64,000 nt of DNA from Minisyncoccota bacterium (GCA_041664265.1 JBAYLD010000002.1:35505-99504), one strand, 5' to 3'; counted from the first letter of the stretch, positions 1,351 to 61,127 are shown. The notes: generated by a model not told the origin, from the sequence alone. Translations and numbers: made by a program.

Positions 1351-1373
1351 TCCGTAAGGTGACACCTTACGGA
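1351..1373. repeat. palindrome TCCGTAAGGTGACACCTTACGGA (family B copy) overlapping 3' end of downstream ORF
   Basis: perfect inverted repeat; same GGTGACACC/CCGTAAGG core recurs at 18014-18056 and 60282-60328. Confidence 0.7.
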
Positions 1374-2401
1374 GTGCGATGCTGGAAGTAGAGCGACATG
1401 AGGAGGAGTTCGAGATCGGGAGGCATGGCAGTTGTTTGGCGGACAATGCCGCCGAGATGGCTCGCGAGAACGGGGACGATCTTTGGCGGATCGTCTGAGA
1501 GCCAGAGCTTGCCAAGATCTCCCGCTTCAAGCGCCTGTCGAAAAGCGGCGATCTCTGAATCGCGCGCGAGTAAGAAGATGACGCGCGGCAAGGGGTGCTT
1601 CTCCGCGATAGAGGTGAATTCGCTTATAACCTTGTCTACCCATGAGCGATCGTCGGCATCGTTCGCTATTTCGGCCAAGGCGATAAAAAGGCCCTTGTGT
1701 ACCACCGAGATAGAAATGATGGATCCCGTCGCGTCGAGGATCAGCGCGTCGCGCTCGTGCGGGAAGGCGATGCGCATCGCCTGATACCGCAACGAGCTGC
1801 CGACGATCGAGAGGATGTGCTTGGTATGGAAAATGCCGCGAAGCGTTGCGTTGATACTGCCAGCTATCCTTTCGTCAATGAGCGATGTGAGGACGATAAC
1901 CGAGGCGCGGTGCGCCTTTCTGCCATATGGATCACGCGTCTCATATCCGTTTAAGATGGTGCCGATGATGCTCTCATTAGCGAGTATCTTCCTTGGCGTT
2001 GATGCCCTCGTTTTCTCGAGTGCCGTGGCAACCATGCTTTTGGTGAAGGTGAAGGGGTGATTCCGCTCGAAATTCTCTGTGCGTACGCTGGTCTCTTGCC
2101 AAGGAGTATCGATCGAGACGAGAATAGTGTCGCTGCGGCCGGTCCCGATGGCGCGCATGAGGATCGGCGTGCCCTCGCGGATCATCTCATTGCCAAGTAT
2201 CGCGAGGGCACGCAGCATCGCCTTCTCGTGCAATTCATCCTTTCGAACCTCTATAGGGAGACGGCGGGTGTAGAGCAGTGTCGGCGCTCCCTTCTCTGTA
2301 TAGTGCGCATACGCACCCGCGACCGACCCCACACCGATATTGATCAGTACGACCGGCTCCACGCCTCTCTCATTGTGGAATAGCTTTTGCAAAAAACTCA
2401 T
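1367..2401 (-). CDS. hypothetical protein, possibly actin/ASKHA-fold ATPase (FtsA/PilM-like); assignment weak
   Basis: 344-aa ORF; N-terminal VVLINIGVGSVAGAY resembles phosphate-1 loop of actin-like ATPases; no Walker motifs. Confidence 0.35.
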   Translation of the reverse strand: MSFLQKLFHNERGVEPVVLINIGVGSVAGAYAHYTEKGAPTLLYTRRLPIEVRKDELHEKAMLRALAILGNEMIREGTPILMRAIGTGRSDTILVSIDTPWQETSVRTENFERNHPFTFTKSMVATALEKTRASTPRKILANESIIGTILNGYETRDPYGRKAHRASVIVLTSLIDERIAGSINATLRGIFHTKHILSIVGSSLRYQAMRIAFPHERDALILDATGSIISISVVHKGLFIALAEIANDADDRSWVDKVISEFTSIAEKHPLPRVIFLLARDSEIAAFRQALEAGDLGKLWLSDDPPKIVPVLASHLGGIVRQTTAMPPDLELLLMSLYFQHRTP

Positions 2402-2405
2402 TCAC

Positions 2406-4154
2406 TTATTCTAACACTGCCTTGATACGCCGGACGCCGGCAGAGGACGCTTCTTCTTTCATAATCTTGAAATGACCAAGCTCAGCAGTGTTGTGCACAT
2501 GCGGCCCGCCGCAAAATTCTAGAGATGAACCGATGCGATAGACCGACACCATGTCGGGATATTTTGCACCAAACTCATGCTCAGCCCCGAGTTTCTCAGC
2601 CTCTTCTTTCGGTAGGGTAAGGTGTTCGACCGGCAGTGCCTGCTCAATCTGCTCGTTCACGATCTTCTCCACTTCTGCAATTTGCTCCGGAACCATCTTC
2701 TGTCCGTAGGAGAAATCAATGCGCAGGCGCTCGCCGGTGATATTGCTCCCCCGCTGGTGCACCTCGCTCCCAAGCACTCTTTGGAGCGCATTAAGGAGCA
2801 GGTGGTGCGCGGTGTGGAGCTTGGTGGTCGCCTCGCTCGCATCGGCGAGCCCGCCGGTAAACTTCTGTGCGGCGCCCGATCGCGAGAGCGCCTGATGCTC
2901 CGCCATCTTTGCCCGCACGACATCTATATCAATCGTGATACCGCGTTCTCTGGCGATTTCTTCAGTGAGTTCGATCGGGAATCCGTAGGTGGTGAAGAGC
3001 ATGAATGCATCAACGTTACTTCCCATCTTCTCCAGCTCGCGGAGGCCGTGTGAGAGCGTTTTCCTAAACTGCATTTCTTCTGCACGGAACTCGTCTTCAT
3101 GTCCTCCGGCAATCTCGCCGAGTATCGCCTCTTTAATACTGAGACGATCCATTTCGCGTATTGCGCGACGGATAAGGCGGCGCAGAACATATCCTTGCTC
3201 TGTGTTTGTAGGATGAAGTCCTGCATCAAACATGACGGAAGCCGCACGCACATGGTCCAAAATGATCCTGAACGCCCGAAGTTTGGACATCGTAAGTCCC
3301 GTATCTGATACGGGACTTACGATGTCCCTATATTGCATGCCCGAATGTTTTTCAAGCACCGCGCGCGCGGCATCAAAGGTGTCAATCAGAAAGACGTCAG
3401 AATTATCTCGTGTCGCCGCAGTCAGTCGCTCAAGGCCGCCGCCGAAATCGACGTTTTGTTGCGGGAGTTTGTCGAACGAGCCGCTCCCATTTTTCACATA
3501 CTCCATAAAGACCGAATTGCCGATCTCCATGAAGCGCCCACAATCGCAGTTCGGGTGGCACGTTTCTCCAAAGGCTGGGTCATGTGGCGTACCAAAATCA
3601 AAAAATATTTCAGAATCAGGACCGCCCAGCTCCCCTGCTGGCATCTTGTCAGGCGTACCGGAACGGCTCCACCAATTCTTCTTCGCATCATAAAAATGAA
3701 TGTGATCTTCAGGCACTCCTAATTTTTTCCAAATCTCTGCCGATTCGGTATCTCTTGGTAGATTAAACACTTCATCTCCGGCAAAGCAGGTCACCCAGAG
3801 CCGGTCCTTCGGGAGTTCGAGTTCTGTCGTTAAAAATTCGTAGAGCCACGGCAACTGCTCTTGTTTGAAATAATCCCCGAGCGACCAATTGCCGAGCATT
3901 TCAAAAAAAGTCGTGTGGCGATTGTCACCCACTTCTTCAATATCCTGTGCGCGGAAGCAGGTTTGTGAATTCGCTAATCGCTTCCCCGCCGAGTGCGGCT
4001 GGCCGAGAAGATATGGCACCAGGGGCTGCATGCCGCTGCTAGTGAAGAGCGTCGTCGGGTCGTTCTCGGGCACGATCGGTGCCGAGGGGATAATCGTGTG
4101 CCCTCGCTTGGCGAAAAACTCCAGATAGCGCCTGCGCACCTCGTTGACGGTCAT
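2406..4154 (-). CDS. alaS: alanyl-tRNA synthetase, short form (catalytic + tRNA-recognition + editing domains, lacks C-terminal C-Ala domain)
   Basis: N-terminus FFAKRGHTIIPSAPIVP...TLFTSSGMQ...FRAQDIEEVG; editing HTAHHLL and CGGPHV motifs; 582 aa vs ~870 typical. Confidence 0.85.
   Translation of the reverse strand: MTVNEVRRRYLEFFAKRGHTIIPSAPIVPENDPTTLFTSSGMQPLVPYLLGQPHSAGKRLANSQTCFRAQDIEEVGDNRHTTFFEMLGNWSLGDYFKQEQLPWLYEFLTTELELPKDRLWVTCFAGDEVFNLPRDTESAEIWKKLGVPEDHIHFYDAKKNWWSRSGTPDKMPAGELGGPDSEIFFDFGTPHDPAFGETCHPNCDCGRFMEIGNSVFMEYVKNGSGSFDKLPQQNVDFGGGLERLTAATRDNSDVFLIDTFDAARAVLEKHSGMQYRDIVSPVSDTGLTMSKLRAFRIILDHVRAASVMFDAGLHPTNTEQGYVLRRLIRRAIREMDRLSIKEAILGEIAGGHEDEFRAEEMQFRKTLSHGLRELEKMGSNVDAFMLFTTYGFPIELTEEIARERGITIDIDVVRAKMAEHQALSRSGAAQKFTGGLADASEATTKLHTAHHLLLNALQRVLGSEVHQRGSNITGERLRIDFSYGQKMVPEQIAEVEKIVNEQIEQALPVEHLTLPKEEAEKLGAEHEFGAKYPDMVSVYRIGSSLEFCGGPHVHNTAELGHFKIMKEEASSAGVRRIKAVLE
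3285..3327. repeat. 43-bp palindromic element (family A) inserted in frame in alaS, translated as DIVSPVSDTGLTMSK
   Basis: GGACATCGTAAGTCCCGTATC|GATACGGGACTTACGATGTCC; core also in leuS, uvrA, uvrC. Confidence 0.8.
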
Positions 4155-4216
4155 ATGACCAAAGTATCGTGCCCTGGCATTTTACGCAATGCAAAATAAA
4201 GCGTATATTGCGCATA

Positions 4217-6205: not shown

Positions 6206-6214
6206 ACTCCTTTT

Positions 6215-6235
6215 GATGGACACTCCGTGTCCATC
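6215..6235. repeat. palindrome GATGGACACTCCGTGTCCATC immediately upstream of ung RBS
   Basis: perfect 9-bp arms; lies between nuclease stop (6246) and ung start (6205). Confidence 0.6.
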
Positions 6236-6245
6236 ATTTTTTCGT

Positions 6246-12681: not shown

Positions 12682-12714
12682 TAGCAACAAAAAGCGGCGC
12701 CAGAAGCGCCGCTT
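12682..12714 (-). terminator. rho-independent terminator after sigma-like gene
   Basis: AAGCGGCGC-TTCTG-GCGCCGCTT stem then TTTTGTTG on minus strand. Confidence 0.65.
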
Positions 12715-12717
12715 TGT

Positions 12718-17254: not shown

Positions 17255-17320
17255 AAAAACAGAAACCCCCGCGCAAGCTCTGCAAGCGCGGGGGTCGATT
17301 GTGCATACCGGGTATGCACA
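17255..17320 (-). terminator. terminator hairpin CCCCCGCGC...GCGCGGGGG + T-tract, preceded by perfect palindrome TGTGCATACCGGGTATGCACA
   Basis: minus-strand stem followed by TTTCTGTTTTT; second 21-bp palindrome at 17300-17320. Confidence 0.6.
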
Positions 17321-17323: not shown

Positions 17324-17875
17324 TTAGGTCGGTTCGGGAACAGGTTCTGCTTCGGGCTTCTGACTTCTCAACCATTGAAGCCCCTTCTTGAGCCACTCCA
17401 GCACCTTGTTTTTGCCGGGAGGTCGCGGGATGCAGATTGAAAAGTATACCCACGCGATCCAACATATTACCGAGGCGAACAAAAATAATGGAATCATCAA
17501 GCTAGCCTTATTCCTCAAAGGTGAGGCCAACACGCCTAACAGTATGGACCAAATGAGTCCGCAAACCAATATTGTGAATATTCGCAAGGGCGTCCGATGA
17601 AAGATAGAAAGCCAGAGTCTGTTGTTTACCAGAAACTCAGTCTCCTCGTACTCCACTCTTCGGATAAGGACTCCTACAACAACTGTAGTAATCGAGACGT
17701 ACCCTACGATTAGAGGAATGAATTTGATCACCAAAGCCGCCCAGAGAAATACAAAAGCCAGAACCAGTGACCACTTCTCGAACTTAAACTTTGTTACTTC
17801 TCCGATGAGCTCTTGGGTGCTATCACACACCCACTGTGCCGCGCTCAACAACTTGCCATCTATCCATCTGAGCAT
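17324..17875 (-). CDS. hypothetical membrane protein
   Basis: 183 aa, 4 predicted TM helices. Confidence 0.4.
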   Translation of the reverse strand: MLRWIDGKLLSAAQWVCDSTQELIGEVTKFKFEKWSLVLAFVFLWAALVIKFIPLIVGYVSITTVVVGVLIRRVEYEETEFLVNNRLWLSIFHRTPLRIFTILVCGLIWSILLGVLASPLRNKASLMIPLFLFASVICWIAWVYFSICIPRPPGKNKVLEWLKKGLQWLRSQKPEAEPVPEPT

Positions 17876-18013: not shown

Positions 18014-18056
18014 CGCGAGGTGACACCTTACGGTTGCCGTAAGGTGTCACCTCGCG
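18014..18056. repeat. 43-bp family-B palindrome just downstream of ychF (terminator-like)
   Basis: CGCGAGGTGACACCTTACGG-TTG-CCGTAAGGTGTCACCTCGCG; same sequence occurs in frame in uvrC at 60282-60328. Confidence 0.75.
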
Positions 18057-18061: not shown

Positions 18062-19159
18062 CTAGCCGTGGAGGAATACCATCACATCGCCGTCCTTGAC
18101 GATGTAATCCTTCCCTTCTGTTCGCACTTTTGCAGTCTCGCGCGCGGCGGCCCACGAGCCGGCAGAGAGGAGATCGTCGGTCGAGACGACTTCAGCGCGG
18201 ATAAACTTATCCAAAAAGTCGTTGTGGATAGCGGCGCCGGCAACCGGCGCCGTACTCCCCGCTTGAATCGTCCACGCGCGCGTCTCGTCGGTGCCGGTGG
18301 TAAAAAATGAGATCAGCCCGAGCGTGTCATAGGCGCTGCGAATCAGACTCGCAAGCCCGTCTTCTTGGGCGCCGAATTCTTGGCGGAAGGTGTGGCGGTC
18401 TTCATCAGCGACGTCATTCAACTCACGCTCGATCGCGGCGTCGACGCGTACGTAGCGCGACCCGAGCGCTTTAATGAGCTCATACGCCCGCTCCGCGCGG
18501 CCATCTGCGAGTTCATCGAGATTGTGCCCGCCATTTTTTGTATTAAGCGCATAGAGGATCGGCTTCATGGTGAGCAGGTTTAAGGTCGCGATGCGCTTCT
18601 TCTCATCGTCGGTGATCCCCGCGTGGAGAGCGAGCTTCCCTGCAGCAAAAGTTTGTTCGAGTTTGGCAAGCACAGCATCCTCCTCGATCGCATCCTTGCG
18701 TCCGGCCTTGATGTCGCCTGCGATCTTGTCGCGGCGCTTACGCACCTGTTCGGCATCGGCGAGCGCGAGTTCCACATTGATGATCTCGATATCCTTATAG
18801 GGCTCGATAGCCTCTTCGACGTGGGTGATGTTTGGATCGTCAAAGAAGCGCACCACTTCGAGTATCGCATCTGTCTCGCGGATATTCGCGAGGAATTGGT
18901 TCCCGAGCCCCTCTCCGTCTGCGGCACCCTTCACCAGCCCCGCGATGTCTACGAACTCGATCGCCGCCGGGATCGTTTTTGCCGATTTTGACAGGTCCGC
19001 GAGCTTCTCGAGCCGCGCATCCGGCACACCGACCACACCCACTGATGGGTCGATGGTGCAGAATGGATAATTCTCCGCCGGCACCGACGCCTTCGTGAGC
19101 GCGTTAAAGAGCGTGGACTTCCCCACGTTCGGCAATCCGACAATGCCTATCTTCAGCAT
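18062..19159 (-). CDS. ychF: ribosome-binding ATPase YchF (Obg-family GTPase)
   Basis: GIVGLPNVGKSTLFNALT G1 motif, NxxE, TGS-like C-terminus; start at MLKIGIVG. Confidence 0.85.
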   Translation of the reverse strand: MLKIGIVGLPNVGKSTLFNALTKASVPAENYPFCTIDPSVGVVGVPDARLEKLADLSKSAKTIPAAIEFVDIAGLVKGAADGEGLGNQFLANIRETDAILEVVRFFDDPNITHVEEAIEPYKDIEIINVELALADAEQVRKRRDKIAGDIKAGRKDAIEEDAVLAKLEQTFAAGKLALHAGITDDEKKRIATLNLLTMKPILYALNTKNGGHNLDELADGRAERAYELIKALGSRYVRVDAAIERELNDVADEDRHTFRQEFGAQEDGLASLIRSAYDTLGLISFFTTGTDETRAWTIQAGSTAPVAGAAIHNDFLDKFIRAEVVSTDDLLSAGSWAAARETAKVRTEGKDYIVKDGDVMVFLHG

Positions 19160-19216
19160 GTTACCCACTATTGCCTTTTTCTATTCAAATTTCAAGCCCA
19201 AGAATATTCAACTTAT

Positions 19217-19261
19217 GACAAAAAAGAAAGGACCTAACAAGTTTTAAGCTTGTCAGGTCCT
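19217..19261 (-). terminator. rho-independent terminator closing the AT-rich operon
   Basis: AGGACCTGACAAG-CTTAAAAC-TTGTTAGGTCCT then TTCTTTTTTGT on minus strand. Confidence 0.6.
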
Positions 19262-19301: not shown

Positions 19302-20111
19302 TCACACCTGTGTCTTCCTTACCAAGGCGAAACCATCGGTCTGAAGCAGGATGCCTTTCTTTCGTTCGATGTAACTTAAGATATCTTCTTGAATGTCCTT
19401 GGGGTATTCTCCCCATCGCTTATTCAAGAAAAATTCGACGATTGAAATTACGTCTCGCATATTGCCCGCTATTGGCAAGTGTAATTCTGAATTGGCACTG
19501 CATGTTGATACTTCTATCGATCTGGTTTTGGCCAATTCATAGAATATATCGAGTGCGCTATCGATGGTTAAAGAATGATAACTTTCTTTCATTAACCGGG
19601 ATTTGAATGTAGATCTGAATTCGTGAATGTCATCATTTTTTCTTAAAACAACAACTAGACAACCATCAGAATTCAGCATGTCCAACATCCTCTTGTAAAT
19701 TCGCGGCAACACATCTCGTGCAAACGGAAGATGCGATACCAAGATTACATCGAATGAATTACTCGGCACAAAATCATCAAAAGTAGAGGGATTAATTTCT
19801 ACTTCAGCATACGGAGGAAATTGCTTTGCAATCAATCGCAATCGTTTTATTAAATCCTTGCTCGGCTCAAGCAAAGTTATGCTTACTCTTTTAAGTCGCC
19901 GAGCTCTGATTTTATTTAACGACAACCGAAGATATTCGCCATTTCCTGAACCAATGTCCAAAAGATTCAAATTATCTCGATTGAGTAATTTCCTTAGCAG
20001 ATTCGCTAGCACCGCTGATGATTTTTCCTTTTCGCTGGTGTACTTCAAGAATGTTTCGAAGACCGACTCTTCTTGTTTATCAAGATATTCGAATCCAACG
20101 TCTTTCCCCAT
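19302..20111 (-). CDS. class I SAM-dependent methyltransferase
   Basis: motif I LLDIGSGNGEY; AT-rich codon usage unlike flanks. Confidence 0.65.
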   Translation of the reverse strand: MGKDVGFEYLDKQEESVFETFLKYTSEKEKSSAVLANLLRKLLNRDNLNLLDIGSGNGEYLRLSLNKIRARRLKRVSITLLEPSKDLIKRLRLIAKQFPPYAEVEINPSTFDDFVPSNSFDVILVSHLPFARDVLPRIYKRMLDMLNSDGCLVVVLRKNDDIHEFRSTFKSRLMKESYHSLTIDSALDIFYELAKTRSIEVSTCSANSELHLPIAGNMRDVISIVEFFLNKRWGEYPKDIQEDILSYIERKKGILLQTDGFALVRKTQV

Positions 20112-20221
20112 GACATTTCACCTCCTTCCATTTTATTTAACCCAACTAATTACAAGTTATGGATGGGCGTAAAATAGAAAGGGTGCACCATTACTGATGC
20201 ACCCCACTTAATCCAATAAGA

Positions 20222-21316
20222 TCATGGCGTTCGGATTCCGCGAAGCGGTTCCTCCCCAAAGGTTAGGAACCACAGACTTCGATAATCCTCCCAAACCAAT
20301 GGTCTCATGCTTGTTCCGACAAACAGCTGTTCCAGAATCTGCCTTGCCTCAAGATAATACTCAAGGCGATTGGCTTCTGGATCTTTAAGAGTTGCCTCAT
20401 GGTACTTATGCATTTGCAGAGTATTGATGGTAGGGAACTTGTTAATGTGATCCTTGAAGCAACCGAAGTGGTACTCCATCACATCCAATGGTTCCGTCCC
20501 GACAATGTAGGCGAAATTCACTTCGTACCCTAATCCTCGCGCGAAATCCATGGATTCGCAGGCGTCTCGGAGACTGACCGCCCTCTTCTCCTTTCGCAAC
20601 AGACCTCGACGTTCGAACGTTTCTAATGAGAAGCAGATGCCAAATGGCTGAATCTCGGCGATACTTCTCAACCAATCTTTGCTTATGATCTGCGAACCGA
20701 GATAAAAGATCTTGCCAACAAACTTGTATTCCATCGAGACCTTCTTTAAGGTACGAAGAAATCGGCAAAGATCTTCGCTATTTTCATAGCAACCGGTCAC
20801 AATCGAGATCTGCACCAGATGAGACAAGTCGGTCAATCCGTACTTGGACATCCACCCTTCAAAGAATTCTCTCAGATCGAAGTCGGTTATCAGTTTCTTC
20901 CTATCATAAGGAACCTGATATGCCGCATAACAGAACTTGCAGCCGTGGCATGAAGTTCTGGAATTCGGATTGATATTGAGCGATGTCCCTTTCCTCCGTG
21001 GATAGTGGGAATCGCAAATATCTTCAGTCGGTCCTATCGCCTGTCCGATAACCGTATTCTGCAAAAGCAGAATATTATTGTCGACTACAGTGAAGGGACT
21101 CTCCTGATTAATCGGCAACGCGAAGTAATAATCAAGTTCCTCTCGCTGTTTAGCGTAATTAAACAGATTGCTGTCGGCCAAATGAAGGGCCATCCGCATC
21201 CTGTTGTAATCACACTCGAAGTTAACACCGTTGATGTTAAGAGCGATGAACAATACATCTTCCAGAGGTATGTTATACCTCTCCGCAAGCCGCACAACCG
21301 TGTTGATTTCTAACAT
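20222..21316 (-). CDS. hypothetical protein with CxxCxxC motif (possible Fe-S enzyme), unknown family
   Basis: 364 aa; SCHGCKFCY is not the canonical radical-SAM CxxxCxxC; no other motif recognised. Confidence 0.45.
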   Translation of the reverse strand: MLEINTVVRLAERYNIPLEDVLFIALNINGVNFECDYNRMRMALHLADSNLFNYAKQREELDYYFALPINQESPFTVVDNNILLLQNTVIGQAIGPTEDICDSHYPRRKGTSLNINPNSRTSCHGCKFCYAAYQVPYDRKKLITDFDLREFFEGWMSKYGLTDLSHLVQISIVTGCYENSEDLCRFLRTLKKVSMEYKFVGKIFYLGSQIISKDWLRSIAEIQPFGICFSLETFERRGLLRKEKRAVSLRDACESMDFARGLGYEVNFAYIVGTEPLDVMEYHFGCFKDHINKFPTINTLQMHKYHEATLKDPEANRLEYYLEARQILEQLFVGTSMRPLVWEDYRSLWFLTFGEEPLRGIRTP

Positions 21317-21319
21317 GAC

Positions 21320-22168
21320 TCATAATCCTCCTTTTGAATTTGTCACTACCTCGAGGAAATGATTCCTTCTTTGACAGATGATTAGAGTAGTCAGTACCGG
21401 TACCGAGATAGCGCCGTGCCGTTTAACGATTTCTGAGATGTGTCCAAAGAATCTTGAACGCTTCTCTTCCTCGACTTCAACGATCTTGGGAAAGGTATTG
21501 AGTAGTTTCGGATATGTCTGATCGTCATAGTTGTACACGGTCAGATATTTCCTCAAGTAAATCGGGTAGAACAAGGGATTTGCGACAACCTCTTGTTCTC
21601 TGTGATTTAACTTCAATAACACACCCTCATTCACGTTGTTTACAGTCGATTCATCGGGATAGACATCCGGTAGAAACTCATGATAGGCGTTGTTGATTTC
21701 AGCAGTAACCGATGAATCGTCCTGAAAGAAACTATTCCAGACCAGGATGAGATGACCCGACTTATTGAGCACATCGGAAACTTGTTTGAACTTGTCCCCC
21801 TCGCTCAACCAATGAAATGCTGTGAAGGCCAGAATCGCGTCAAACTTTTCCGCAACCCGGAAATTCTCGAATGTATCCTCGATAATCTCGACATTCTTGA
21901 ACGAACTCGTCTGTTCCCTGGCAATTGCTGCCAGACGTGCGCCCGGTTCGATAGCAACAATATGACAACCGAGCTTAGCAAGCTCGATGGTCGCAATGCC
22001 ACTGCCAGCTCCGATTTCCATTAAACGAGAACTACCATCAATCCCACATTGCTCTTTGATATCTGAGAACAGCGCAACCGGATATCCCGGACGAACTGAA
22101 TGATAATTGTCAGCATATACGTCAAATGACGCATTGAAGATATTTTTCCCTTTGAACATCATAGTCAT
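21320..22168 (-). CDS. class I SAM-dependent methyltransferase
   Basis: motif I LMEIGAGSGIAT; 4-nt overlap with upstream gene. Confidence 0.7.
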   Translation of the reverse strand: MTMMFKGKNIFNASFDVYADNYHSVRPGYPVALFSDIKEQCGIDGSSRLMEIGAGSGIATIELAKLGCHIVAIEPGARLAAIAREQTSSFKNVEIIEDTFENFRVAEKFDAILAFTAFHWLSEGDKFKQVSDVLNKSGHLILVWNSFFQDDSSVTAEINNAYHEFLPDVYPDESTVNNVNEGVLLKLNHREQEVVANPLFYPIYLRKYLTVYNYDDQTYPKLLNTFPKIVEVEEEKRSRFFGHISEIVKRHGAISVPVLTTLIICQRRNHFLEVVTNSKGGL

Positions 22169-22749
22169 TCTCCTTTTATGGTTGATTGATGTAAGAACTG
22201 CATGAACCGATCTTTAACATCGACCAATTCTAATGGCCGACGGAAGTCACGGCGTCCACCGAGTTCAATTTTTGCAACAATGAATCCCGGTCCTTGCCTG
22301 AAATGCAATATAGCACGCCTTAGATCTTTCTGATTATTTACCACCTGTACATACCGATAACCAACAGTAAGTGCTAGTTGATCGAGATGAGCGGAATCAG
22401 ACATTGATTTTTCTTCGTTACAAGAACCATAAGCACTATTATCAATAACGATATGAAGCAAATTTTCAGGTTGCTTATTGCCTATCGTTACAATAGAGCC
22501 AAGATTCATCAACAAACTTGCATCACCATCAATTATTACCACCCGCTTAGTGGGGCACGAGATAGCTAATCCCAACCCAATTGATGATGCGAGTCCCAAT
22601 GAACCGGGAACATAGATATTTCTGACTGAGTCGAATTTTTCGAAAACCTCTCGAGAAATCAACCCCGTTGTTGAAATATTGACTGTATCCGCCGGATCAA
22701 TCACTCTCATAATGGTTTCAATTGCTTCTTTTCTTTTCATCTTTGCCAC
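22165..22749 (-). CDS. TPP-dependent 2-oxoacid decarboxylase, beta subunit (ComE / phosphonopyruvate decarboxylase C-half-like)
   Basis: TPP-binding IDGDASLLMNLGS...N motif. Confidence 0.65.
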   Translation of the reverse strand: MAKMKRKEAIETIMRVIDPADTVNISTTGLISREVFEKFDSVRNIYVPGSLGLASSIGLGLAISCPTKRVVIIDGDASLLMNLGSIVTIGNKQPENLLHIVIDNSAYGSCNEEKSMSDSAHLDQLALTVGYRYVQVVNNQKDLRRAILHFRQGPGFIVAKIELGGRRDFRRPLELVDVKDRFMQFLHQSTIKGE

Positions 22750-23276: not shown

Positions 23277-23329
23277 GTTTATTTCCTCCTTTTTATTTTA
23301 TTTAGTATGTCAAAGAGCCCCTGTCTTCC

Positions 23330-23365
23330 TTGAGAACATCTCAAGGGCGGTTGCATTTTATCATT
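23330..23365 (-). promoter_or_regulatory. candidate promoter TTGACA-N17-ATAAAA (with TG) for the decarboxylase/MT sub-operon
   Basis: minus-strand TTGACAAATCTAATAATTAAATGATAAAAT in the 141-nt gap after the ABC gene. Confidence 0.35.
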
Positions 23366-23418
23366 TAATTATTAGATTTGTCAATACATTGCTCTGTTAT
23401 ACAAAATGTGTTGATATT

Positions 23419-37026: not shown

Positions 37027-37039
37027 AGGAGGTATTGAA

Positions 37040-38176: not shown

Positions 38177-38198
38177 CTCATTGGTTCTTACATCAAAA

Positions 38199-38238
38199 AG
38201 GTTAGGCAATGTTATATGTTGCCTAGCCTTTTTTGTTT
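38199..38238 (+). terminator. rho-independent terminator
   Basis: AGGTTAGGCAA-TGTTATATG-TTGCCTAGCCT then TTTTTTG. Confidence 0.7.
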
Positions 38239-38246
38239 GTGATAAT

Positions 38247-39945: not shown

Positions 39946-39951
39946 CTTAAT

Positions 39952-39986
39952 ATAAAAAATAAGGAGCGGCTTTCGCCTGCTCCTTA
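39952..39986 (-). terminator. rho-independent terminator after tmk
   Basis: ATAAGGAGC-AGGCGAAAGCC-GCTCCTTAT then TTTTTTAT on minus strand. Confidence 0.6.
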
Positions 39987-40580
39987 TGATAAAACACTTT
40001 CCACGTGGTGGGAAATAAGTGCGCTGATTCCCTCTACCGACAGAGAACCATCGACTACCACCCATGAAGCTTCTTTTGAGAGATCGAGAAAAACTTCTCT
40101 CTGCTTTCGGAAGAACTCGTTGCTCATCAGATCGAACTTGCTTTGCTCCAATTTCTTGTCCTTTCGGTGAGCCGCCTCCTCAATGTCAACATCAAGAAGC
40201 AATGTTAACTTTGGTCTCAAGCCGTTAATGGCAAGCGTAATGGCATTGAGGAGAAACGACCTAGAAAACCCGAGTGATTCGAAATAACTTACAAACGACC
40301 CGACTCCGCGATCACAGATGACGATTCCATTGCTTGAGATGAATGGAACGATTACCTGCGAAAAGAGTTGCGCTTTGCAAGCTAGGAAAGAAAAGAGTTC
40401 GACTTCCGGTGGCCTAGATTCTCCGCTGGTTAACACCTTCCGTATTCCTCTCCCAAGCTCCGTGCTTCCGAGGTCTTTTACTACGATCACATCTTTCCCT
40501 TGTTGTTGCAGATACTCCTTGAGAAGCTCGCACTGCGTTGTCTTTCCAACACCATCAACACCTTCGATTTCGATAATCAT
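39984..40580 (-). CDS. tmk: thymidylate kinase
   Basis: P-loop IEGVDGVGKTTQ; start at MIIEIEG with RBS GGAGGG. Confidence 0.8.
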   Translation of the reverse strand: MIIEIEGVDGVGKTTQCELLKEYLQQQGKDVIVVKDLGSTELGRGIRKVLTSGESRPPEVELFSFLACKAQLFSQVIVPFISSNGIVICDRGVGSFVSYFESLGFSRSFLLNAITLAINGLRPKLTLLLDVDIEEAAHRKDKKLEQSKFDLMSNEFFRKQREVFLDLSKEASWVVVDGSLSVEGISALISHHVESVLS

Positions 40581-40639
40581 TTTACCCTCCAATCTGATTT
40601 CCATGTTAAGAACAATGCTTCGGCACCATCCGAACGCTC

Positions 40640-40672
40640 TGTTTATATTGTAGCATACCTTTACAGATAATG
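40640..40672 (-). promoter_or_regulatory. candidate promoter TTGCAT-N17-TACAAT for tmk
   Basis: minus-strand TTGCATTATCTGTAAAGGTATGCTACAAT about 60 nt upstream of start. Confidence 0.35.
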
Positions 40673-40708
40673 CAAGCCCCCCCAGTTTGCAACGTATTTT
40701 AAGCCTTC

Positions 40709-42493
40709 TTATGGCTGGTATTCGCTCAGCTTTATAGCACCGAGAACGTACAGCCTCGTCATTGCTCGCGTTAGCGCAACATACAAGAGATCTTTCTGAA
40801 TTCGCTTTTTCTCCTCTTCATGTTCATCAATATTGTCACTTATTCTCCCGTTTCTGAATGAATGCCCGTCTATACCTACAATGAATACTGTGTCGAACTC
40901 GACACCCTGGGATTCCGCCATGGTTAATACATGAACCCGTGGATCATTCTGGAAGTGGAGTCTGAACGGCTCGAGATATTCAGCGCGTCTTGCAATAATA
41001 CCAACAGTGGGATCAGCCGCGGCGTTGAACGTCTTTTGTATATAATGAACCTGCTCCTCTTGTGTGTGCAGAATTTGTTCTTCAACCATTGGGCCATCTT
41101 TACTACTGCTCGGGACTGATATTGCATATCCTAGATCTCGAATATATGAGAGTATTTGTCGTGTACTTCGATAGACTCTTCCCAACTCAACGTGCTTATC
41201 TCCTGTTATGTTTTCTCCGATATCGTCCCAAGTGCGAATAGTCCCCACATTAATCTGCTGAGCCATATCGCCCACATATAATATTGACTTCGTATCAGTC
41301 GACAGACACCGTTTCAACAGTATCAATTGTTCCGGTAGGTAGTTCTGAAATTCATCGACAAGAATAAGTGAATACGCAAGCGCTGATTTTATGTAGCGCT
41401 CCTTTGGGACACCAAATTTTTCAAAAAATGCCAGCAAAAGAAACGTCAGATCAAACCTGTCGAGTACACCATGGGCTTTCTGCCGATCGAACGTCTTCAG
41501 AGCAGCTGGACTAAGATGTTGAGCATAGAGAGATTTTAACGCAACAAATGAACGGCGGCCAAATACGCATTTCAGTCCTTTTCTAAGCAACTTTAATTTC
41601 TCGTATTCATAAGCATCCCGTTCCTCATCATTGTCGCCGAATCTAAATGTGAACTCATGACCAGATATGTTGAGTATTTCAAATGCCCACTCCCAGAACG
41701 TGGTGATGCACACCCCTTTAATACCGAGATCGGGAAGGATCTCGGAAAAGTATTCTTTGGTAGCGGAATCTTGCACAAAGACAATAACTGAACCTCTATA
41801 GAAAAGCGAAGATGTATCAATTGACTGCATCAAAAATGCAATCCTGTGGAACGCGAGTGTTGTTTTGCCTGAACCTGCGGGACCGGATATTACCAGAGAT
41901 CCTTTGTGATGTGCTCGAATAATTTGATCCTGGGCTTTCTCCATTTGGGCCACTATTTCAGGGAGCGCAAACCCTGATTTCCGCTGGGTGAAAGGTTCTC
42001 GATATATGACTTCCCACAGGGCGTTCAGAGTTTCGCGAGTGTAGGAAAGAATTTTCTGGTCAATTATTGTAAACTTCTCCTTAGAGAGAAGCTGCGCCAT
42101 CTTTTTCTCCCCGCTCGGGAGTGTGTACGCGACGTCCCCAAGATTCTCAAAACGTATTGACGATATGGGTGCAACCCACGAATATATAGCCTCTTCTGAT
42201 AGGTTAAAGGTCGCGAAGTAAACAGTCACGATTTCTGGTGAAGATTCATATACCAATTCACATTTTATGAAGTAAGGAGTCTTATTGAGAAAAGTCAATT
42301 CTTCAATCCTTTGACTAAGATAGTAGAGCCGATTCGAATGCACGCCCAGATCGTCACTTCGAATACGGAAAGTCTCACTTTCCGCCTTTTCTTTCTGAGC
42401 AGTAATTACTTCGCGTGAATTGACGATTGTCTTACGCACTGCAATTAAATGCTTTCTCAAGCCAGATAGTAACTGTTCTTTGGTGGCTTCCAT
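40709..42493 (-). CDS. UvrD/HelD-family (helicase IV-like) superfamily-1 helicase
   Basis: Walker A GPAGSGKTT; LILVDEFQNY; YRSTRQIL; LYVALTRAM. Confidence 0.75.
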   Translation of the reverse strand: MEATKEQLLSGLRKHLIAVRKTIVNSREVITAQKEKAESETFRIRSDDLGVHSNRLYYLSQRIEELTFLNKTPYFIKCELVYESSPEIVTVYFATFNLSEEAIYSWVAPISSIRFENLGDVAYTLPSGEKKMAQLLSKEKFTIIDQKILSYTRETLNALWEVIYREPFTQRKSGFALPEIVAQMEKAQDQIIRAHHKGSLVISGPAGSGKTTLAFHRIAFLMQSIDTSSLFYRGSVIVFVQDSATKEYFSEILPDLGIKGVCITTFWEWAFEILNISGHEFTFRFGDNDEERDAYEYEKLKLLRKGLKCVFGRRSFVALKSLYAQHLSPAALKTFDRQKAHGVLDRFDLTFLLLAFFEKFGVPKERYIKSALAYSLILVDEFQNYLPEQLILLKRCLSTDTKSILYVGDMAQQINVGTIRTWDDIGENITGDKHVELGRVYRSTRQILSYIRDLGYAISVPSSSKDGPMVEEQILHTQEEQVHYIQKTFNAAADPTVGIIARRAEYLEPFRLHFQNDPRVHVLTMAESQGVEFDTVFIVGIDGHSFRNGRISDNIDEHEEEKKRIQKDLLYVALTRAMTRLYVLGAIKLSEYQP

Positions 42494-42514
42494 GAATGAG
42501 ACTCGGATTTTTGT

Positions 42515-43048
42515 TTACGCCTTCGCAAGTCCTTGGTTTTTACGCTGTTTGAGATACAGATTTTTGAAGTAGGTAGGGACATCGGGAAAATACTTCTTGA
42601 ACTGCTTTTCCGGCAAATATTGGATGGAGCGTATGATCTTCCGGCAGCCCTTTTGTCCGCACGCGCATTTCATTTCCCAGAAATCATCACCTTCTATAAT
42701 AGAGTAATCTATAGTTACCTCCTCGCCCTCTTTGATAGGCTTGAGGGCGACGATAACATACTTTCCTTTTACGCTCTTGTCCGACTTGTTAACAATGATA
42801 GTCCCATTGATTCCCGCATTAGGATTACACGAATGATTAAGATATTGATTAGGGTATTCAGGATCTATCCACTTATCTTTTCCCACACCTATCCAATTCG
42901 GATAAGAAAGGGACTCTTCTTTGTTGGTGACCGTAAGAAATCTTGCCTCACCACGTATTTCTTGAATGGCTTCACCCTTCTTAATTTTCTCTCCGGCAGA
43001 AACTCCCTTGCCTTCGATAGGACTTGAGCAAATATAAATATGCTTCAT
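42515..43048 (-). CDS. SET-domain protein-lysine methyltransferase-like
   Basis: NHSCNPN, EEVTIDY, post-SET CACGQKGCRKI; start at MKHIYICSS. Confidence 0.7.
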   Translation of the reverse strand: MKHIYICSSPIEGKGVSAGEKIKKGEAIQEIRGEARFLTVTNKEESLSYPNWIGVGKDKWIDPEYPNQYLNHSCNPNAGINGTIIVNKSDKSVKGKYVIVALKPIKEGEEVTIDYSIIEGDDFWEMKCACGQKGCRKIIRSIQYLPEKQFKKYFPDVPTYFKNLYLKQRKNQGLAKA

Positions 43049-43065
43049 GTTTTTCGGTGCCGCGA

Positions 43066-43074
43066 TTATACCAT
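43066..43074 (-). promoter_or_regulatory. extended -10 TGGTATAAT upstream of SET/helicase operon
   Basis: minus-strand CTTTATGGTATAAT, 18 nt before ATG, no RBS. Confidence 0.45.
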
Positions 43075-43108
43075 AAAGAAAGCCCCTCGTGGATATCCAC
43101 AAAGGGCT

Positions 43109-43681
43109 TTAACTCTTTCGTCTTGCGATCAAGAAGGTTGCCAGATGCACCGCCAGATGACTTGTCGGATATGCCAACTCTTCCCATCGTTTAAGTCTCA
43201 GAAGGACTGAGACGAGAAGGAGAGAGTACGCGAGTGTCCAGATGAGCCACGGCAACGGCCTTTCGACCTCCCTACCCGCAAGCTGTCCACGGAACATGGG
43301 CAGGAATGACAAGACGGTACTGACCTGGTAGAGCAAACTCGCAATCACGACATTGGTAAAAGCCCAGATGACCGTAACCGCTCCGTCTGCACCTACAAAA
43401 GCCCAGTCCGTTTTGTCTGGCCAACTGAACCGCTTCTTCACAATCGCGTAGCAGAAGGTGCTAATGGCCGCTACCGCACAAGCCGCCGGAAGAATGTTCT
43501 TCACCCAGTCGCCGGTGAGCACGGAGTACGACGCAAGGTCAACTATCCCTCCGAGCGCCCAGATGCTCCACGAGCCGGTGTTTATCTTCTCGCCAGCGCC
43601 TCTGTTGTAAATGAAGTAGCCGACCAGCTGCACCGCTCCGGCCGCAAAGCCGAGAACGACTGAAATCTCTGTGATGCCCAT
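43109..43681 (-). CDS. hypothetical polytopic membrane protein
   Basis: 190 aa, about 6 TM helices. Confidence 0.4.
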   Translation of the reverse strand: MGITEISVVLGFAAGAVQLVGYFIYNRGAGEKINTGSWSIWALGGIVDLASYSVLTGDWVKNILPAACAVAAISTFCYAIVKKRFSWPDKTDWAFVGADGAVTVIWAFTNVVIASLLYQVSTVLSFLPMFRGQLAGREVERPLPWLIWTLAYSLLLVSVLLRLKRWEELAYPTSHLAVHLATFLIARRKS

Positions 43682-43834
43682 CTGGCACCTCCTTTCTGTT
43701 TATTTGTCTGACGTTAAAAGACCAAGGTATCTGACACCTCGTCACCCTGTCGAGGGCGAGGAAACCTCCCAAATACCACCTCTTTATATCATAGCACATC
43801 TTCCTAAAAAATGCAAGAGGTGCGTAGGACAGCC

Positions 43835-44488
43835 CTATTTAATTAGGTTGTTGAACGCGTCATATGTTGGCTCGAATCCGTACACCGCTTTAAATAAAGC
43901 GTTAAACTTGTCTTTTGTTGGATTTCCGCCTGATTTCTTGATGTTCCGTAAAAGATCAAGAATTTTCTCTTTACCAAACGCCTTAACAAGGGCTTCTACG
44001 GCAAAGCCCGATTCTTTATAGACTCCAGCACCGCCAGTATCGAAGAATTCTAGAAAACTAGAAAATGATGCTGGTTTCTTTTTGAACTGAATATCGCCAG
44101 AAACATACCCGCTCAACCCCTCGGTCAGCCATATAGGAGTATGGCCGCCGTTAGTACTCGCGCTGAAAAATAGATGGCAGAGCTCGTGGGTGAGAAGCGC
44201 ATTATATTCTTCAACAGAATGCGCCCTATCTGATTCTGTCCCCATTTTTTCCCTTGCGAGCAGGAATACTTTGCGGTGCTCAGACCACCCGACTACCCAG
44301 GACTCCGTATTTTTAGTTCGCAGACAATCAATCGTCGCTCGATCTTCAACAATAAATACAGGAGGTAGATGCTGAGTCCAACCAATATCAAAGAAATCAT
44401 TGAGCCGCTTCATCGCGGCTACGTACGATTCTTCCAATTCATTATGAACGGGTTTGACGGTCAGGTTGAATAGGTGGTCCATACACAT
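43835..44488 (-). CDS. HExxH metallopeptidase-like protein
   Basis: THELCHLFF HExxH motif. Confidence 0.5.
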   Translation of the reverse strand: MCMDHLFNLTVKPVHNELEESYVAAMKRLNDFFDIGWTQHLPPVFIVEDRATIDCLRTKNTESWVVGWSEHRKVFLLAREKMGTESDRAHSVEEYNALLTHELCHLFFSASTNGGHTPIWLTEGLSGYVSGDIQFKKKPASFSSFLEFFDTGGAGVYKESGFAVEALVKAFGKEKILDLLRNIKKSGGNPTKDKFNALFKAVYGFEPTYDAFNNLIK

Positions 44489-48830: not shown

Positions 48831-48851
48831 TGTGGACACCGGGTGTCCACA
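48831..48851. repeat. palindrome TGTGGACACCGGGTGTCCACA (family C)
   Basis: copy of element inside ung (5885-5905). Confidence 0.7.
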
Positions 48852-58350: not shown

Positions 58351-58365
58351 AACTTTTCTATCCTA

Positions 58366-58803: not shown

Positions 58804-58813
58804 GTTTTAAATA

Positions 58814-59776
58814 TCATCGTCCCAACGCGAGATTGACCAGATGCGAAAGGAATTCAGAGAACGAGACGCCGACCGCGGCGAGAGATTTGGGCATGAGCGA
58901 GCCCGCGGTGAGCCCCGGGAGCGTGTTCGTCTCGAGATAATAGACGCCCTTGGGCGTGACGATAAAGTCGCTCCGCGAATAGTGACGAAGGCCCAAGGCG
59001 CGATGCATCACCTTCGCTGCCCGTCGCAACTCCTCGGCGTTCACACGCGAGAAATTGCCGGGACAGACTTCATGCGTCTTGCCCGAATACTTCGCGGCAT
59101 ACGAGAAGAAGTCGCCGCCCTGCGGAATAATCTCGACCGGCGGTAAGGTATAGAGCACCTCGCCGCGCAGGCCTTCGACCACGCCCGCCGCCGCCTCCTT
59201 GCCTCGTATGTATTCTTCAACTAAGACGCCCGCCGCGCCCTCTGCAAAGAGCTGTTCGATAGCGGCAAGAACCGGCGCATAGCCGCCGACGACAGAAACA
59301 CCCACTGAAGAACCCCACCCGACCGGCTTCACGACAACCGGCTGATGGAAAGATCGAATAATCTCATGCGCTTCTCGTTCGCTCTCTTCGGCACGTTCGA
59401 TGTAATGGAACTTTGGGGTGAGCAATCCCGCCTCCTGCGCCCGCATCTTCGCCATCAACTTGTGCATCGCGAGATATGAACCGAATGAATCTGCGCCCGT
59501 ATACGGAATGCCAAAACGTTCGAGCAGTTTCTGTACTTCGCCGTCTTCGCCGTATTCGCCATGGAGACCGATGAGGACGAGATCGACTTGCCGCAACACG
59601 CGCTCGGGCGGCGTCGGGCGGCCACGGTCGTGCCACACGCCTTGTTTATCAATATAAATATCACGCGCGATGTAACGCTCCTCGCTTAGATTCGCGAGCA
59701 TCATCGCACCCGTCTGGAGCGAGACTTCATGCTCGCGGCTGGGCCCGCCGCGCAACACCCCGATGATGGTCTGCAT
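58814..59776 (-). CDS. ddl: D-alanine--D-alanine ligase
   Basis: ATP-grasp Ddl motifs, C-terminal LETNTLPGLT. Confidence 0.85.
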   Translation of the reverse strand: MQTIIGVLRGGPSREHEVSLQTGAMMLANLSEERYIARDIYIDKQGVWHDRGRPTPPERVLRQVDLVLIGLHGEYGEDGEVQKLLERFGIPYTGADSFGSYLAMHKLMAKMRAQEAGLLTPKFHYIERAEESEREAHEIIRSFHQPVVVKPVGWGSSVGVSVVGGYAPVLAAIEQLFAEGAAGVLVEEYIRGKEAAAGVVEGLRGEVLYTLPPVEIIPQGGDFFSYAAKYSGKTHEVCPGNFSRVNAEELRRAAKVMHRALGLRHYSRSDFIVTPKGVYYLETNTLPGLTAGSLMPKSLAAVGVSFSEFLSHLVNLALGR

Positions 59777-59795
59777 AGAAATAGTATACCAGGCC

Positions 59796-61127
59796 TCAAA
59801 TCAAAATTTGCACTCGCATCTCGCGCAAGTTTCTGCTTCTCGCTCTGCGATGACGTGCGAGAGAAAACCGATGTGCTTCAGAATTCGCCAGAACCGCGTC
59901 TGCTTCGCTTATTCCTGAAGTACGCGCTCCGATAACCTCGCGCGGGCGGTGCCGCTCGTCTTTCACCACAGCAACCACGGAGATCTTCATGCCAAACTCG
60001 ACAAGTACCGCCTCGGCCGCACGCTTCTGCGTGCGGCCGCCGTCTACGACGATCACTCGCGGAAACGGCCACTCGGGATGATTCAGTCGCCGTGTCAGAA
60101 TTTCCTTTAGCGAGGCAATATCATCATTTTTCATGTGGGACTTCGGAAGTCCCACATTCCCACGGATGCGGAATGTCCGATATTCTTTTTTCGCGGGAAC
60201 GCCATCTATGACCACCGTCATCACCCCAATCGCATTCGTACCCGAGAGGTGTGCAACGTCATATGCCTCAATCCGCAAGGTCCCGCGAGGTGTCACCTTA
60301 CGGCAACCGTAAGGTGACACCTCGCGGGACTCGTCCTTAATGAGCGAGACATCCTGGACATGATCGAGCGCGAAGAGCTCGCGGCGCCGCGCGGACGCGT
60401 CTTCGAAACGTTCTTCTTTAGCCGCGTGGCGCATTTCTTTTTCAAGCGCCAGACGCAACTCTTTGCCGCGCCCACTTAAAAAGAGCATCACATGACGAAT
60501 CGTGCGTCGATATTTTTTTGCATCAAACTCGCGCGGATATTGTTTGATTTGTTTATTGAATTCTATTTTTGCCTGATGATGTTTCCCGGGCGCTGTAACG
60601 GGCTTGGCTGTGTCAAAGAACGGAAATATCTTACGGATAAGCCGCAGAGCCTCTTTCAGCTGCGCCCCGCTCGGGAACGGCCCGTATATCGCGCGCAAGG
60701 TGACTCCTCGCAACAAGGTGACTCCTCGCCGCGAGGTGTCTCCTTGTTGCCCTTGTTGCTCTAAATCTTTGCCGCGCACGACAAGCACGCGCGGAATGTC
60801 TTCTTCGGTAATCACTGCATAAAGAAATGTCTTATCGTCCTTCCCTTCTGCATTCGCCGCCGGGTGATACTGCTTGATCAGCGCCGCCTCGCGCACGAGA
60901 GCCTCAAGCACCGTTGGGGTCGTCTCAAAGGCGACGCGATCGGCTTTGGTCACCATATCTACCACGCGCGGCCCGCGTGTTGCGATCAGGTCGTCATCAA
61001 AATAACTCCGCACCCGATCGCGGAGCGAAGTCGCCTTGCCAACATACAAGACTTTTCTGCCCTGCTTAAAGAGATACACCCCCGGGACATCCAGCAGATC
61101 AAACTTTTTTAGCTCGTTTCGTTGCAT
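59796..61127 (-). CDS. uvrC: excinuclease ABC subunit C, short form with in-frame repeat insertions
   Basis: GIY-YIG VPGVYLFKQGRKVLYVGKATSLRDRV; 443 aa; 29-nt overlap with uvrA. Confidence 0.8.
   Translation of the reverse strand: MQRNELKKFDLLDVPGVYLFKQGRKVLYVGKATSLRDRVRSYFDDDLIATRGPRVVDMVTKADRVAFETTPTVLEALVREAALIKQYHPAANAEGKDDKTFLYAVITEEDIPRVLVVRGKDLEQQGQQGDTSRRGVTLLRGVTLRAIYGPFPSGAQLKEALRLIRKIFPFFDTAKPVTAPGKHHQAKIEFNKQIKQYPREFDAKKYRRTIRHVMLFLSGRGKELRLALEKEMRHAAKEERFEDASARRRELFALDHVQDVSLIKDESREVSPYGCRKVTPRGTLRIEAYDVAHLSGTNAIGVMTVVIDGVPAKKEYRTFRIRGNVGLPKSHMKNDDIASLKEILTRRLNHPEWPFPRVIVVDGGRTQKRAAEAVLVEFGMKISVVAVVKDERHRPREVIGARTSGISEADAVLANSEAHRFSLARHRRARSRNLREMRVQILI
60134..60156. repeat. family-A palindrome TGTGGGACTTCGGAAGTCCCACA in frame in uvrC (VGLPKSH)
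   Basis: identical core to uvrA copy at 63822-63844. Confidence 0.8.
60282..60328. repeat. 47-bp family-B palindrome in frame in uvrC (REVSPYGCRKVTPRG)
   Basis: CCCGCGAGGTGTCACCTTACGG-CAA-CCGTAAGGTGACACCTCGCGGG. Confidence 0.8.
60696..60759. repeat. degenerate tandem/inverted family-B-like repeats in uvrC (QGDTSRRGVTLLRGVTL)
   Basis: CAAGGTGACTCCTCGC twice in tandem, then CGCGAGGTGTCTCCTTG. Confidence 0.6.

Follow-up and report, generated by a model that had tools for sequence, protein, structure and literature searches.

The palindromic repeat referred to here as family B recurs in a 64,000-nt stretch of DNA from a Minisyncoccota bacterium (GCA_041664265.1, JBAYLD010000002.1:35505-99504; this whole stretch is called the window), where it lies in frame inside uvrC, just past the stop codon of ychF, and across the end of a further open reading frame (ORF). 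With a probability of about 0.8, these sequences are repetitive extragenic palindromes (REPs) and REP doublets (REPINs) of a REP-RAYT system, a RAYT being a REP-associated tyrosine transposase, in the Paceibacteria/Kaiserbacteria (Patescibacteria, Candidate Phyla Radiation, CPR). The palindromes are not primarily terminators; they are a dispersed family of repeats associated with a RAYT-like Y1 transposase, and the occurrence of one element in both coding and intergenic DNA therefore requires no dedicated function at each site. REP-RAYT is a known kind of system, and its occurrence in the CPR has apparently not yet been described; the literature search found no report of a RAYT, a REPIN or in-frame palindromic elements in the CPR/Patescibacteria.

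The uvrC copy (60280..60330, minus strand) consists of two perfectly inverted 24-nt arms around a 3-nt loop, laid out as GTCCCGCG-AGGTGTCACCT-TACGG-CAA-CCGTA-AGGTGACACCT-CGCGGGAC, that is, as an inverted doublet of the REP core. The host gene of the palindrome-derived segments (59796..61127, minus strand; Pfam UvrC_RNaseH_dom) encodes a UvrC of 443 residues with three hot spots, and this copy occupies the second. It is translated as S-REVSPYGCRKVTPRG-T and codes for SREVSPYGCRKVTPRGT, immediately ahead of the strand RIEAYD in the RNase H-like domain; the palindrome supplies 17 of the 19 residues that separate LIKDE from RIEAYD in the window protein. A degenerate family-B cluster is found in frame at hot spot 1 of the same gene (60693..60749, minus strand), where three cores with one mismatch each (AGGTGACTCCT twice and AGGTGTCTCCT) code for QQGDTSRRGVTLLRGVTLR. 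The intergenic copy (18014..18056, minus strand) has perfect 20-nt arms and a 3-nt loop in the arrangement CGCG-core-TACGG-TTG-CCGTA-core-CGCG. It is located at the 3' end of ychF (18062..19168, minus strand, 368 aa), 5 nt past the stop codon, and the next gene on the same strand follows 138 nt further. The short copy, TCCGTAAGGTGACACCTTACGGA (1351..1373, minus strand), is a REP singlet at the end of a 344-aa ORF without a Pfam match (1367..2401, minus strand) directly downstream of alaS. The stop codon of this ORF is the CCG-TAA of the singlet, after which AATTTTTA comes on the transcribed strand. The singlet is centred on the sub-palindrome found inside each arm of the long copies, and its sequence is identical to the palindrome that flanks the RAYT gene in related genomes.

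The original prediction had recognized the in-frame palindrome of uvrC, giving it slightly shorter limits (60282-60328), and its placement of the ychF copy was correct; the degenerate cluster at 60693-60749 was not among its sites. It was also right that the copy at 1351-1373 overlaps the 3' end of a gene, but the description of this copy as a half-copy had to be abandoned, as it is a complete 23-nt palindrome that represents the family's basic unit, of which the long copies are inverted doublets. Comparison of the uvrC copy with the intergenic copies confirmed the dual occurrence of the element, as an in-frame coding insert and as an intergenic hairpin. When up to two mismatches were allowed, the 15-mer CCGTAAGGTGWCACC matched the window nine times against an expectation of 0.09, and none of 100 shuffles reached nine. 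A JGI contig (Ga0376277_0000960, 3300037810) and an ENA contig (ERZ27249449, k141_464617), possibly assembled from the same reads, carry an identical uvrC region, and the window UvrC is listed under a metagenome-assembled genome (MAG) of Candidatus Paceibacterota. An exact-protein look-up with YchF gave no match.

The basic unit of the family is a palindrome of about 21 nt in which an 11-nt self-complementary core, AGGYGWCRCCT, is enclosed by an outer stem. The unit reads CCGTA-AGGTGWCACCT-TACGG in this lineage, and each arm of a long copy holds its own small palindrome, AGGTG-W-CACCT. The 21-nt form CCGTA-AGGTGACACCT-TACGG was the commonest in the window and in 31 loci of other genomes. Two-core compounds were found in two permutations, CGCG-core-TACGG-nnn-CCGTA-core-CGCG, which is the window type, and CCGTA-core-CGCGGCG-core-TACGG. 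The cores are inverted in each of the 11 exact two-core compounds, and the outer stems vary between copies yet stay complementary, indicating that the long copies are inverted doublets folding into one hairpin, that is, REPINs. An unpaired GTAG or CGTC end tag was not found; the closest sequence is a GTAA within the stem (CCGTAAGG).

The core was present at 198 sites, against 1.2 expected, in 743 kb comprising the window and related loci, a density of about one per 4 kb that is biased because this DNA was fetched on account of the elements or RAYT genes in it. When 185,579 species, each represented by one genome, were scanned with a 20-mer, 31 loci were obtained, and 29 of these are from CPR (Patescibacteria) MAGs classified as Kaiserbacteria, Paceibacterota, Parcubacteria and 'Saccharibacteria'. 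The other two, one each in Smithellaceae (L002) and Actinoplanes (L012), fit the few chance matches expected on a rough estimate. At least 13 sites of the strict pattern were counted in the MAG JBAZRE01. The 20-mer had 0 matches in a scan of viral contigs, which gives no hint of phage carriage. A CRISPR reading of the repeats was ruled out, there being no arrays.

The link to a transposase emerged from the related genomes. In four species (L007, L013, L015 and L021), two palindrome copies lie 8-40 nt upstream of the start of a gene encoding about 223 residues, and in two of the four a compound copy lies 1-2 nt past its stop. Two of the three copies of the protein tested matched the Pfam family Y1_Tnp (PF01797, IS200-like) with 26.5 and 25.6 bits, and the third scored 22.0 bits (cutoff 23). 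The sole NCBIfam match, at 34-35 bits and under the 80-bit cutoff, was the REP-associated tyrosine transposase NF047646 (REP_Tyr_transpos equivalog). The HUH motif NHFH and the tyrosine motif NYVHCNP are of the class-2 TnpA_REP type, as tabulated by Quentin et al. 2018 (PMC6006769, Table 1). Among 30 homologues aligned (P0121-P0240), the catalytic tyrosine is invariant and the HUH motif is intact in 25. A structural model of the transposase, of moderate confidence (pLDDT 68.7, pTM 0.74), had as its top Foldseek match in the PDB the E. coli RAYT in complex with a REP hairpin (4ER8_A; E = 2.9e-6, TM 0.63 by target), which ranked above the IS608, ISDra2 and IS200 transposases.

A metagenome scan yielded 80 further RAYT loci at 100-48% identity. 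The core element lies within 150 nt upstream of the gene in 57 of 69 non-redundant RAYT loci and on both sides in 20 of 66, and in the more distant clade (at most 62% identity) the palindrome is usually on both sides. The 11-nt core, AGG(T/C)G-W-C(A/G)CCT, is constant across these loci. The outer stem is clade-specific (CCGTA/TACGG, CCGCA/TGCGG, CCACG/CGTGG, GATG/CATC or GTCA/TGAC) and its changes are complementary; at outer positions 2-5, each with 3-4 pair types, the pairing frequency exceeded that of all 500 shuffles. There is one RAYT per locus, adjacent and divergent to the same gene for a TPR protein of about 800 residues in all 32 loci of the clade with at least 64% identity that had enough upstream DNA. 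The order of the neighbourhood is MurJ, TPR, RAYT, RNase P RNA (rnpB) and class II RNR, with the RNase P RNA (RF00010, 110-123 bits) immediately downstream of the RAYT gene at L007 6811-7153 and L115 3747-4130. The 881 database homologues are uniformly about 223 aa long, come from CPR MAGs, and are labelled only 'transposase' or 'hypothetical'.

Given its single copy per locus and fixed synteny, the RAYT appears to be a domesticated gene and not an insertion sequence, a behaviour that matches the RAYTs described by Bertels et al. 2017 (PMC5581495). Like the IS200/IS605 elements, it is a Y1 HUH transposase gene with hairpins on one or both sides. However, it is single in each locus with fixed synteny, and it is the bare palindromes, not the gene, that are dispersed. 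At L115 (~2920-3003; also in L117), the RAYT-proximal palindrome was seen between TTGACT and TACAAT, which are 16 nt apart, the TACAAT hexamer ending 6 nt before the ATG of the RAYT. This arrangement suggests that the repeat overlaps a putative RAYT promoter, possibly allowing autoregulation, and that the mRNA would be near-leaderless.

The placement of the repeat was evaluated at 125 non-redundant sites, in a census biased by the choice of loci (pattern matches and RAYT-centred loci). Just 15 sites (12%) are inside ORFs and 110 are outside, against a coding share of about 86% of the DNA; 30 of the 125 are at most 12 nt from a stop codon, the remainder being elsewhere in the ~14% of non-coding DNA. 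Translation in all frames showed one open frame per strand, the others meeting TGA (AGG-TGA-CAC) or TAA (CCG-TAA-GG). The full-doublet coding copies are all in the open frame and give REV[ST]PYGxRKV[ST]PRG, a peptide that recurs because a single frame is open. Short and permuted coding forms give RKV[ST]PYG, (Q/R)GDT(S/L)R or RGVT(L/S), or SVRCHLT in the TGA-free orientation. Copies in the TAA frame can survive solely at the very end of a gene, donating its stop, as at 1351-1373; the same 6-nt overlap of repeat and gene end was seen at five fetched sites, this window copy included. Elsewhere, in-frame family-B copies were found in the genes for UvrB (L003 358-2478), a MurD-like ligase (L014 365-1705), MnmA (L005 3323-4288), TrmD (L009 2927-3634), Pol III delta' (L022 2-616) and HisRS (L026 4618-5853), and in a methyltransferase gene. 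All the excinuclease genes, uvrA, uvrB and uvrC, carry palindrome-derived inserts somewhere in the lineage.

In the mechanism proposed, the transposase would recognize the hairpin (CCGTAAGGTGWCACCTTACGG) in single-stranded DNA and would copy or re-seed it around the chromosome, and purifying selection in a very gene-dense genome would afterwards purge the copies that break genes. Since coding sequence makes up about 86% of these genomes and one frame of three is open, three classes of survivor are expected, all of which are present in the window. The first would be copies just past a stop codon, such as the ychF copy, and the second would be copies that overlap a gene end and donate its TAA, such as 1351-1373. 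The third would be copies in frame in a permissive loop or linker, read as REV[ST]PYGxRKV[ST]PRG or as one of the frame variants, such as the copy in uvrC.

The uvrC segment proved not to be a conserved part of the protein. When 40 UvrC orthologues (~75% identical) were aligned, they were near-invariant outside three hot spots, located in the window UvrC at residues ~122-145, ~266-284 and ~323-334. In about 111 orthologues the length of hot spot 1 ranges from 10 to 33 residues, and that of hot spot 2 is mostly 11-20 with a minimum of 10, the anchor having mis-parsed a few sequences; hot spot 3 has the minimal length of 4 residues in 90 of 113. Family-B peptides in varied forms occur at hot spot 1 in about 21 orthologues and at hot spot 2 in about 11, and 'GDTS/GVTL' peptides at either of the two in about 30; in still others, these hot spots hold peptides derived from different palindrome families. 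The segment is thus hypervariable in sequence and length, and the original prediction withstands its own refuting condition, a segment conserved as protein in lineages lacking the palindrome. Occupancy, form and family at the hot spots differ across species, which fits repeated insertion but might reflect decay as well. In the AlphaFold model of UvrC, hot spots 2 and 3 are coils with pLDDT below 50 between the modelled elements of the RNase H-like domain; this model is poor (pLDDT 52.8) and too weak for a confident placement of the inserts on the surface. A pseudogenized uvrC was ruled out, the ORF being intact and conserved. The protein is short at 443 aa, the Pfam matches of its orthologues being GIY-YIG, UVR and RNase H-like, with no C-terminal helix-hairpin-helix match reported, and the start of uvrC and the end of uvrA share 29 nt (window 59796-61127 and 61099-63900).

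The family resembles the REP/REPIN-RAYT systems that Bertels and Rainey defined in 2011 (PMC3116915) and that were treated by Bertels et al. 2017 (PMC5581495) and Quentin et al. 2018 (PMC6006769), which include the REP/BIME sequences and TnpA_REP of E. coli and the REPINs of Pseudomonas. The shared features are short, over-represented palindromes, mostly extragenic, with a concentration shortly past the ends of ORFs; doublets whose inverted halves fold into a single hairpin; in related genomes, a syntenic HUH/Y1 gene, one per locus, flanked by the same repeats and carrying the class-2 motifs NHxH ... YxHxNP; and an E. coli RAYT-REP complex as the closest solved structure. The intragenic share is higher, ~12% in the census (about a quarter of the pattern-selected sites) whereas in P. 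fluorescens SBW25 it is 14 of 1,067 (PMC3116915).

Intragenic REPs have a precedent. Di Nocera et al. 2013 (PMC3733652) described REPs wholly inside ORFs, single or as dimers and encoding up to 20-30 residues, many of them in the excinuclease ABC genes (uvrA, uvrB) and in genes for polymerases and RecBCD. They also reported REPs less than 20 bp from the 3' ends of ORFs and REP termini that donate stop codons. All three behaviours of these GTAG/CGTC REPs are seen in the window, where they affect uvrC and uvrA; in a relative (L003), UvrB is affected. Unlike them, family B is found in another phylum, belongs to another repeat superfamily, and has neither a GTAG nor a CGTC tag. Moreover, the same UvrC hot spots are filled by differing forms and families in about 110 orthologues, suggesting recurrent or long-lived colonization.

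The possibility was considered that the palindromes are primarily functional RNA hairpins, terminators or stabilizers of 3' ends, selected at gene ends, with the coding copies incidental. This is the strongest of the alternatives and is nevertheless rather unlikely. The hairpins are highly stable, as the original prediction had claimed for the ychF copy. The predicted RNA energies are -50.9 kcal/mol for the ychF copy, -57.0 for the uvrC copy (z = -8.4) and -15.1 for the short copy, and REPs that follow ORFs are believed to function at the RNA level (PMC3733652), a role with which the 30 of 125 sites close to a stop codon agree. The copy at 1351-1373 passed the terminator scan with a 10-bp stem and the tail ATTTTTAC, and a promoter-like site (17953-17926, minus strand) was noted past the ychF hairpin and ahead of the next gene. 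Furthermore, in the ychF-proximal comparison an orthologue 83% identical (L020) was found to have the doublet 2 nt past its stop in the same orientation, matching at 40 of 43 nt, whereas beyond the doublet no alignment with the window is possible. Retention of the copy beside unalignable flanks argues for selection or for site-specific renewal.

However, the long copies at 18014-18056 and 60280-60330 have no T/U run and were not called by the terminator scan, the ychF copy being followed by GGUCUCAAACGC. The earlier description as terminator-like therefore holds for the short copy and fails for the ychF copy. Canonical terminators do occur in the window (12691-12715, 6214-6236 and 19229-19261), and the terminator-like structures in it, 26 against 21.3 +/- 4.9 in shuffles, are not in excess. 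Like Rho-independent terminators, the copies past stop codons are GC-rich hairpins, and 1351-1373 has a U-run; unlike them, the copies of 43-51 nt lack a U-tract and one is in the middle of an ORF, and the hairpin did not evolve locally, its sequence being that of a shared repeat. A 24-bp hairpin in the middle of uvrC, and others in the middle of housekeeping ORFs, would be lethal to the gene if they caused termination. An RNA function also leaves unexplained why the same sequence stands beside a transposase gene in dozens of genomes. Convergent evolution of local terminators was ruled out by the sequence identity across loci and genomes. Liang, Rudd and Deutscher reportedly found in 2015 that REPs near stop codons affect translation. 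A role at mRNA 3' ends, as a stabilizer, terminator or brake on translation termination, would be secondary, and as such an exapted role it could coexist with REPs spread by a RAYT. Judged by its U-tract, the short copy alone is a plausible terminator.

A more speculative proposal, which is distinctly unlikely, would make the REPIN-RAYT system a standing generator of variation in loops and at gene ends. Hot spots in UvrC, UvrA/UvrB, aminoacyl-tRNA synthetases and Mur ligases would be re-seeded since existing REP-derived sequence would itself be the preferred target, the hairpins would tune the excision-repair genes, and the ychF copy and the RAYT beside rnpB would reflect a function at the level of the host. 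If this were true, the unexplained association of REPs with uvr genes in Di Nocera et al. 2013 would become testable.

It is improbable that family B is a selfish family without a dedicated transposase, comparable to the Rickettsia palindromic elements (RPEs), whose copies would have spread through gene conversion, recombination or template switching at hairpins, and for which the Y1 gene would be an insertion target or an unrelated neighbour. RPEs were reportedly described by Ogata and co-workers in 2000; the classical RPE-1 is about 100-150 bp long. The likeness is that of palindromic repeats in frame in the housekeeping genes of a small-genome, host-dependent bacterium, RPEs being tolerated in surface loops. 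Such insertion is the hallmark of RPEs, which carry a CGTC tag and have no known transposase (PMC3733652). Consistent with spread by other means, the window contains no RAYT, direct transposition was not observed in the comparison of contigs, and the chimeric arms (CGCG-core-TACGG) suggest recombination of REP variants at the core. On the other hand, family B measures 21-51 bp, lacks the CGTC tag, has a CPR and not an alphaproteobacterial host, and is linked to a RAYT-like gene. The element precedes the start of that gene in the 57 of 69 loci noted above, compared with about one core per 4 kb even in DNA selected for elements or RAYT genes. The outer stem co-varies with the RAYT clade, and the closest solved relative of the enzyme is a RAYT that binds a REP hairpin.

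That the palindrome is a protein-binding site, an operator or DNA-uptake sequence built by mutation and drive and not by insertion, is very improbable. Its dyad symmetry is perfect, the motif is common to several species, and two copies lie over the putative RAYT promoter in many genomes, as between TTGACT and TACAAT in L115. However, compared with orthologues, the coding copies are inserts that alter the length and not substitutions, and the two-core inverted doublets coexist with several unrelated palindrome families. Positions right past stop codons and inside ORFs are atypical of operators, and uptake sequences are normally not hairpins of 21-51 nt with a link to a Y1 transposase. An artefact of metagenome assembly can practically be dismissed: chimeric reads or assembler errors can create palindromes and both window assemblies may share reads, but dozens of independent MAGs and metagenomes, produced by different studies, carry the same element in frame or at the ends of genes, and the ORFs stay intact.

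Several observations weigh against the assignment to a REP-RAYT system. The first concerns movement. An all-vs-all blastn comparison of 115 loci, including near-identical contig pairs, revealed no informative presence/absence polymorphism, empty site or target duplication, and just two indels of at least 12 nt, neither of them a clean insertion. The sole element-associated indel was a 24-nt tandem duplication of a half-REP (GTACCGCGAGGC twice) beside the RAYT in L072 (~3964) relative to L073. The second is the enzyme. No RAYT, TPR, MurJ or RNR gene was detected by tblastn in the 64-kb window and the adjoining 7 kb, and two RAYT homologues traced as candidates for the window genome (P0180 and P0176) both came from other samples; the presence of a cognate RAYT in the window's own genome is assumed. 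Unlike classical RAYTs, the CPR transposase is divergent, scoring 35 bits and thus far under the NCBIfam cutoff, and has a C-terminal extension of about 75 residues. A RAYT profile had no sequence-level match in the PDB. The second histidine of the HUH motif is missing in 5 of the 30 homologues (HFN, HFD or NFN in place of HFH), and judging from these changes some RAYT copies may be catalytically altered. The third is the repeat itself. In contrast to classical RAYT-associated REPs, family B consists of perfect palindromes around an 11-nt self-complementary core that is conserved, and the unpaired GTAG tag is missing. Lastly, the bias of the site census counts on the same side, and the ychF copy kept at one site in two species despite diverged flanks is not predicted by pure selfish turnover.

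CPR genomes are about 1 Mb in size, very gene-dense, and usually called poor in mobile DNA. An assignment of family B to a REP-RAYT system extends the range of such systems to this radiation and explains, by a known class of mechanism, the puzzle of perfect palindromes translated inside essential genes. Because intergenic space is scarce, the surviving elements map the protein sites that tolerate 7-17 extra residues; they also illustrate the donation of stop codons by repeats. The CPR offers an independent, deep-branching case of REPs in UvrA/B/C, which helps to test targeting against mere tolerance. On the practical side, the inserted segments inflate the apparent divergence of proteins and can mislead the alignment, annotation and assembly of CPR MAGs.

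Other palindromes were noticed in the window. Family A is a different, perfect palindrome of 43 nt (3285-3327), GGACATCGTAAGTCCCGTATC-T-GATACGGGACTTACGATGTCC, with a predicted RNA hairpin of -38.4 kcal/mol. It is in frame in an alaS-like ORF (2406..4154, minus strand), where it codes for DIVSPVSDTGLTMS, and it lacks the family-B core. A further class has the form TGTG-x5/6-CGG-x5/6-CACA and was found at 60133-60157, 63822-63844, 17300-17320 and 48831-48851. Two near-identical copies of this class are in frame, at hot spot 3 of uvrC (VGLPKSH) and at the N-terminus of uvrA (GLPKSH), and, compared with 90 of 113 orthologues, the copy in uvrC is an insert. Of the two related intergenic copies, one lies 3 nt past the stop of an ORF at 17324..17875 and the other beside a canonical terminator. 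Finally, the G+C content is 0.44-0.45 at 20001-24000 and 36001-44000, compared with 0.50-0.56 elsewhere in the window, and on this compositional ground the two stretches may be horizontally acquired islands.

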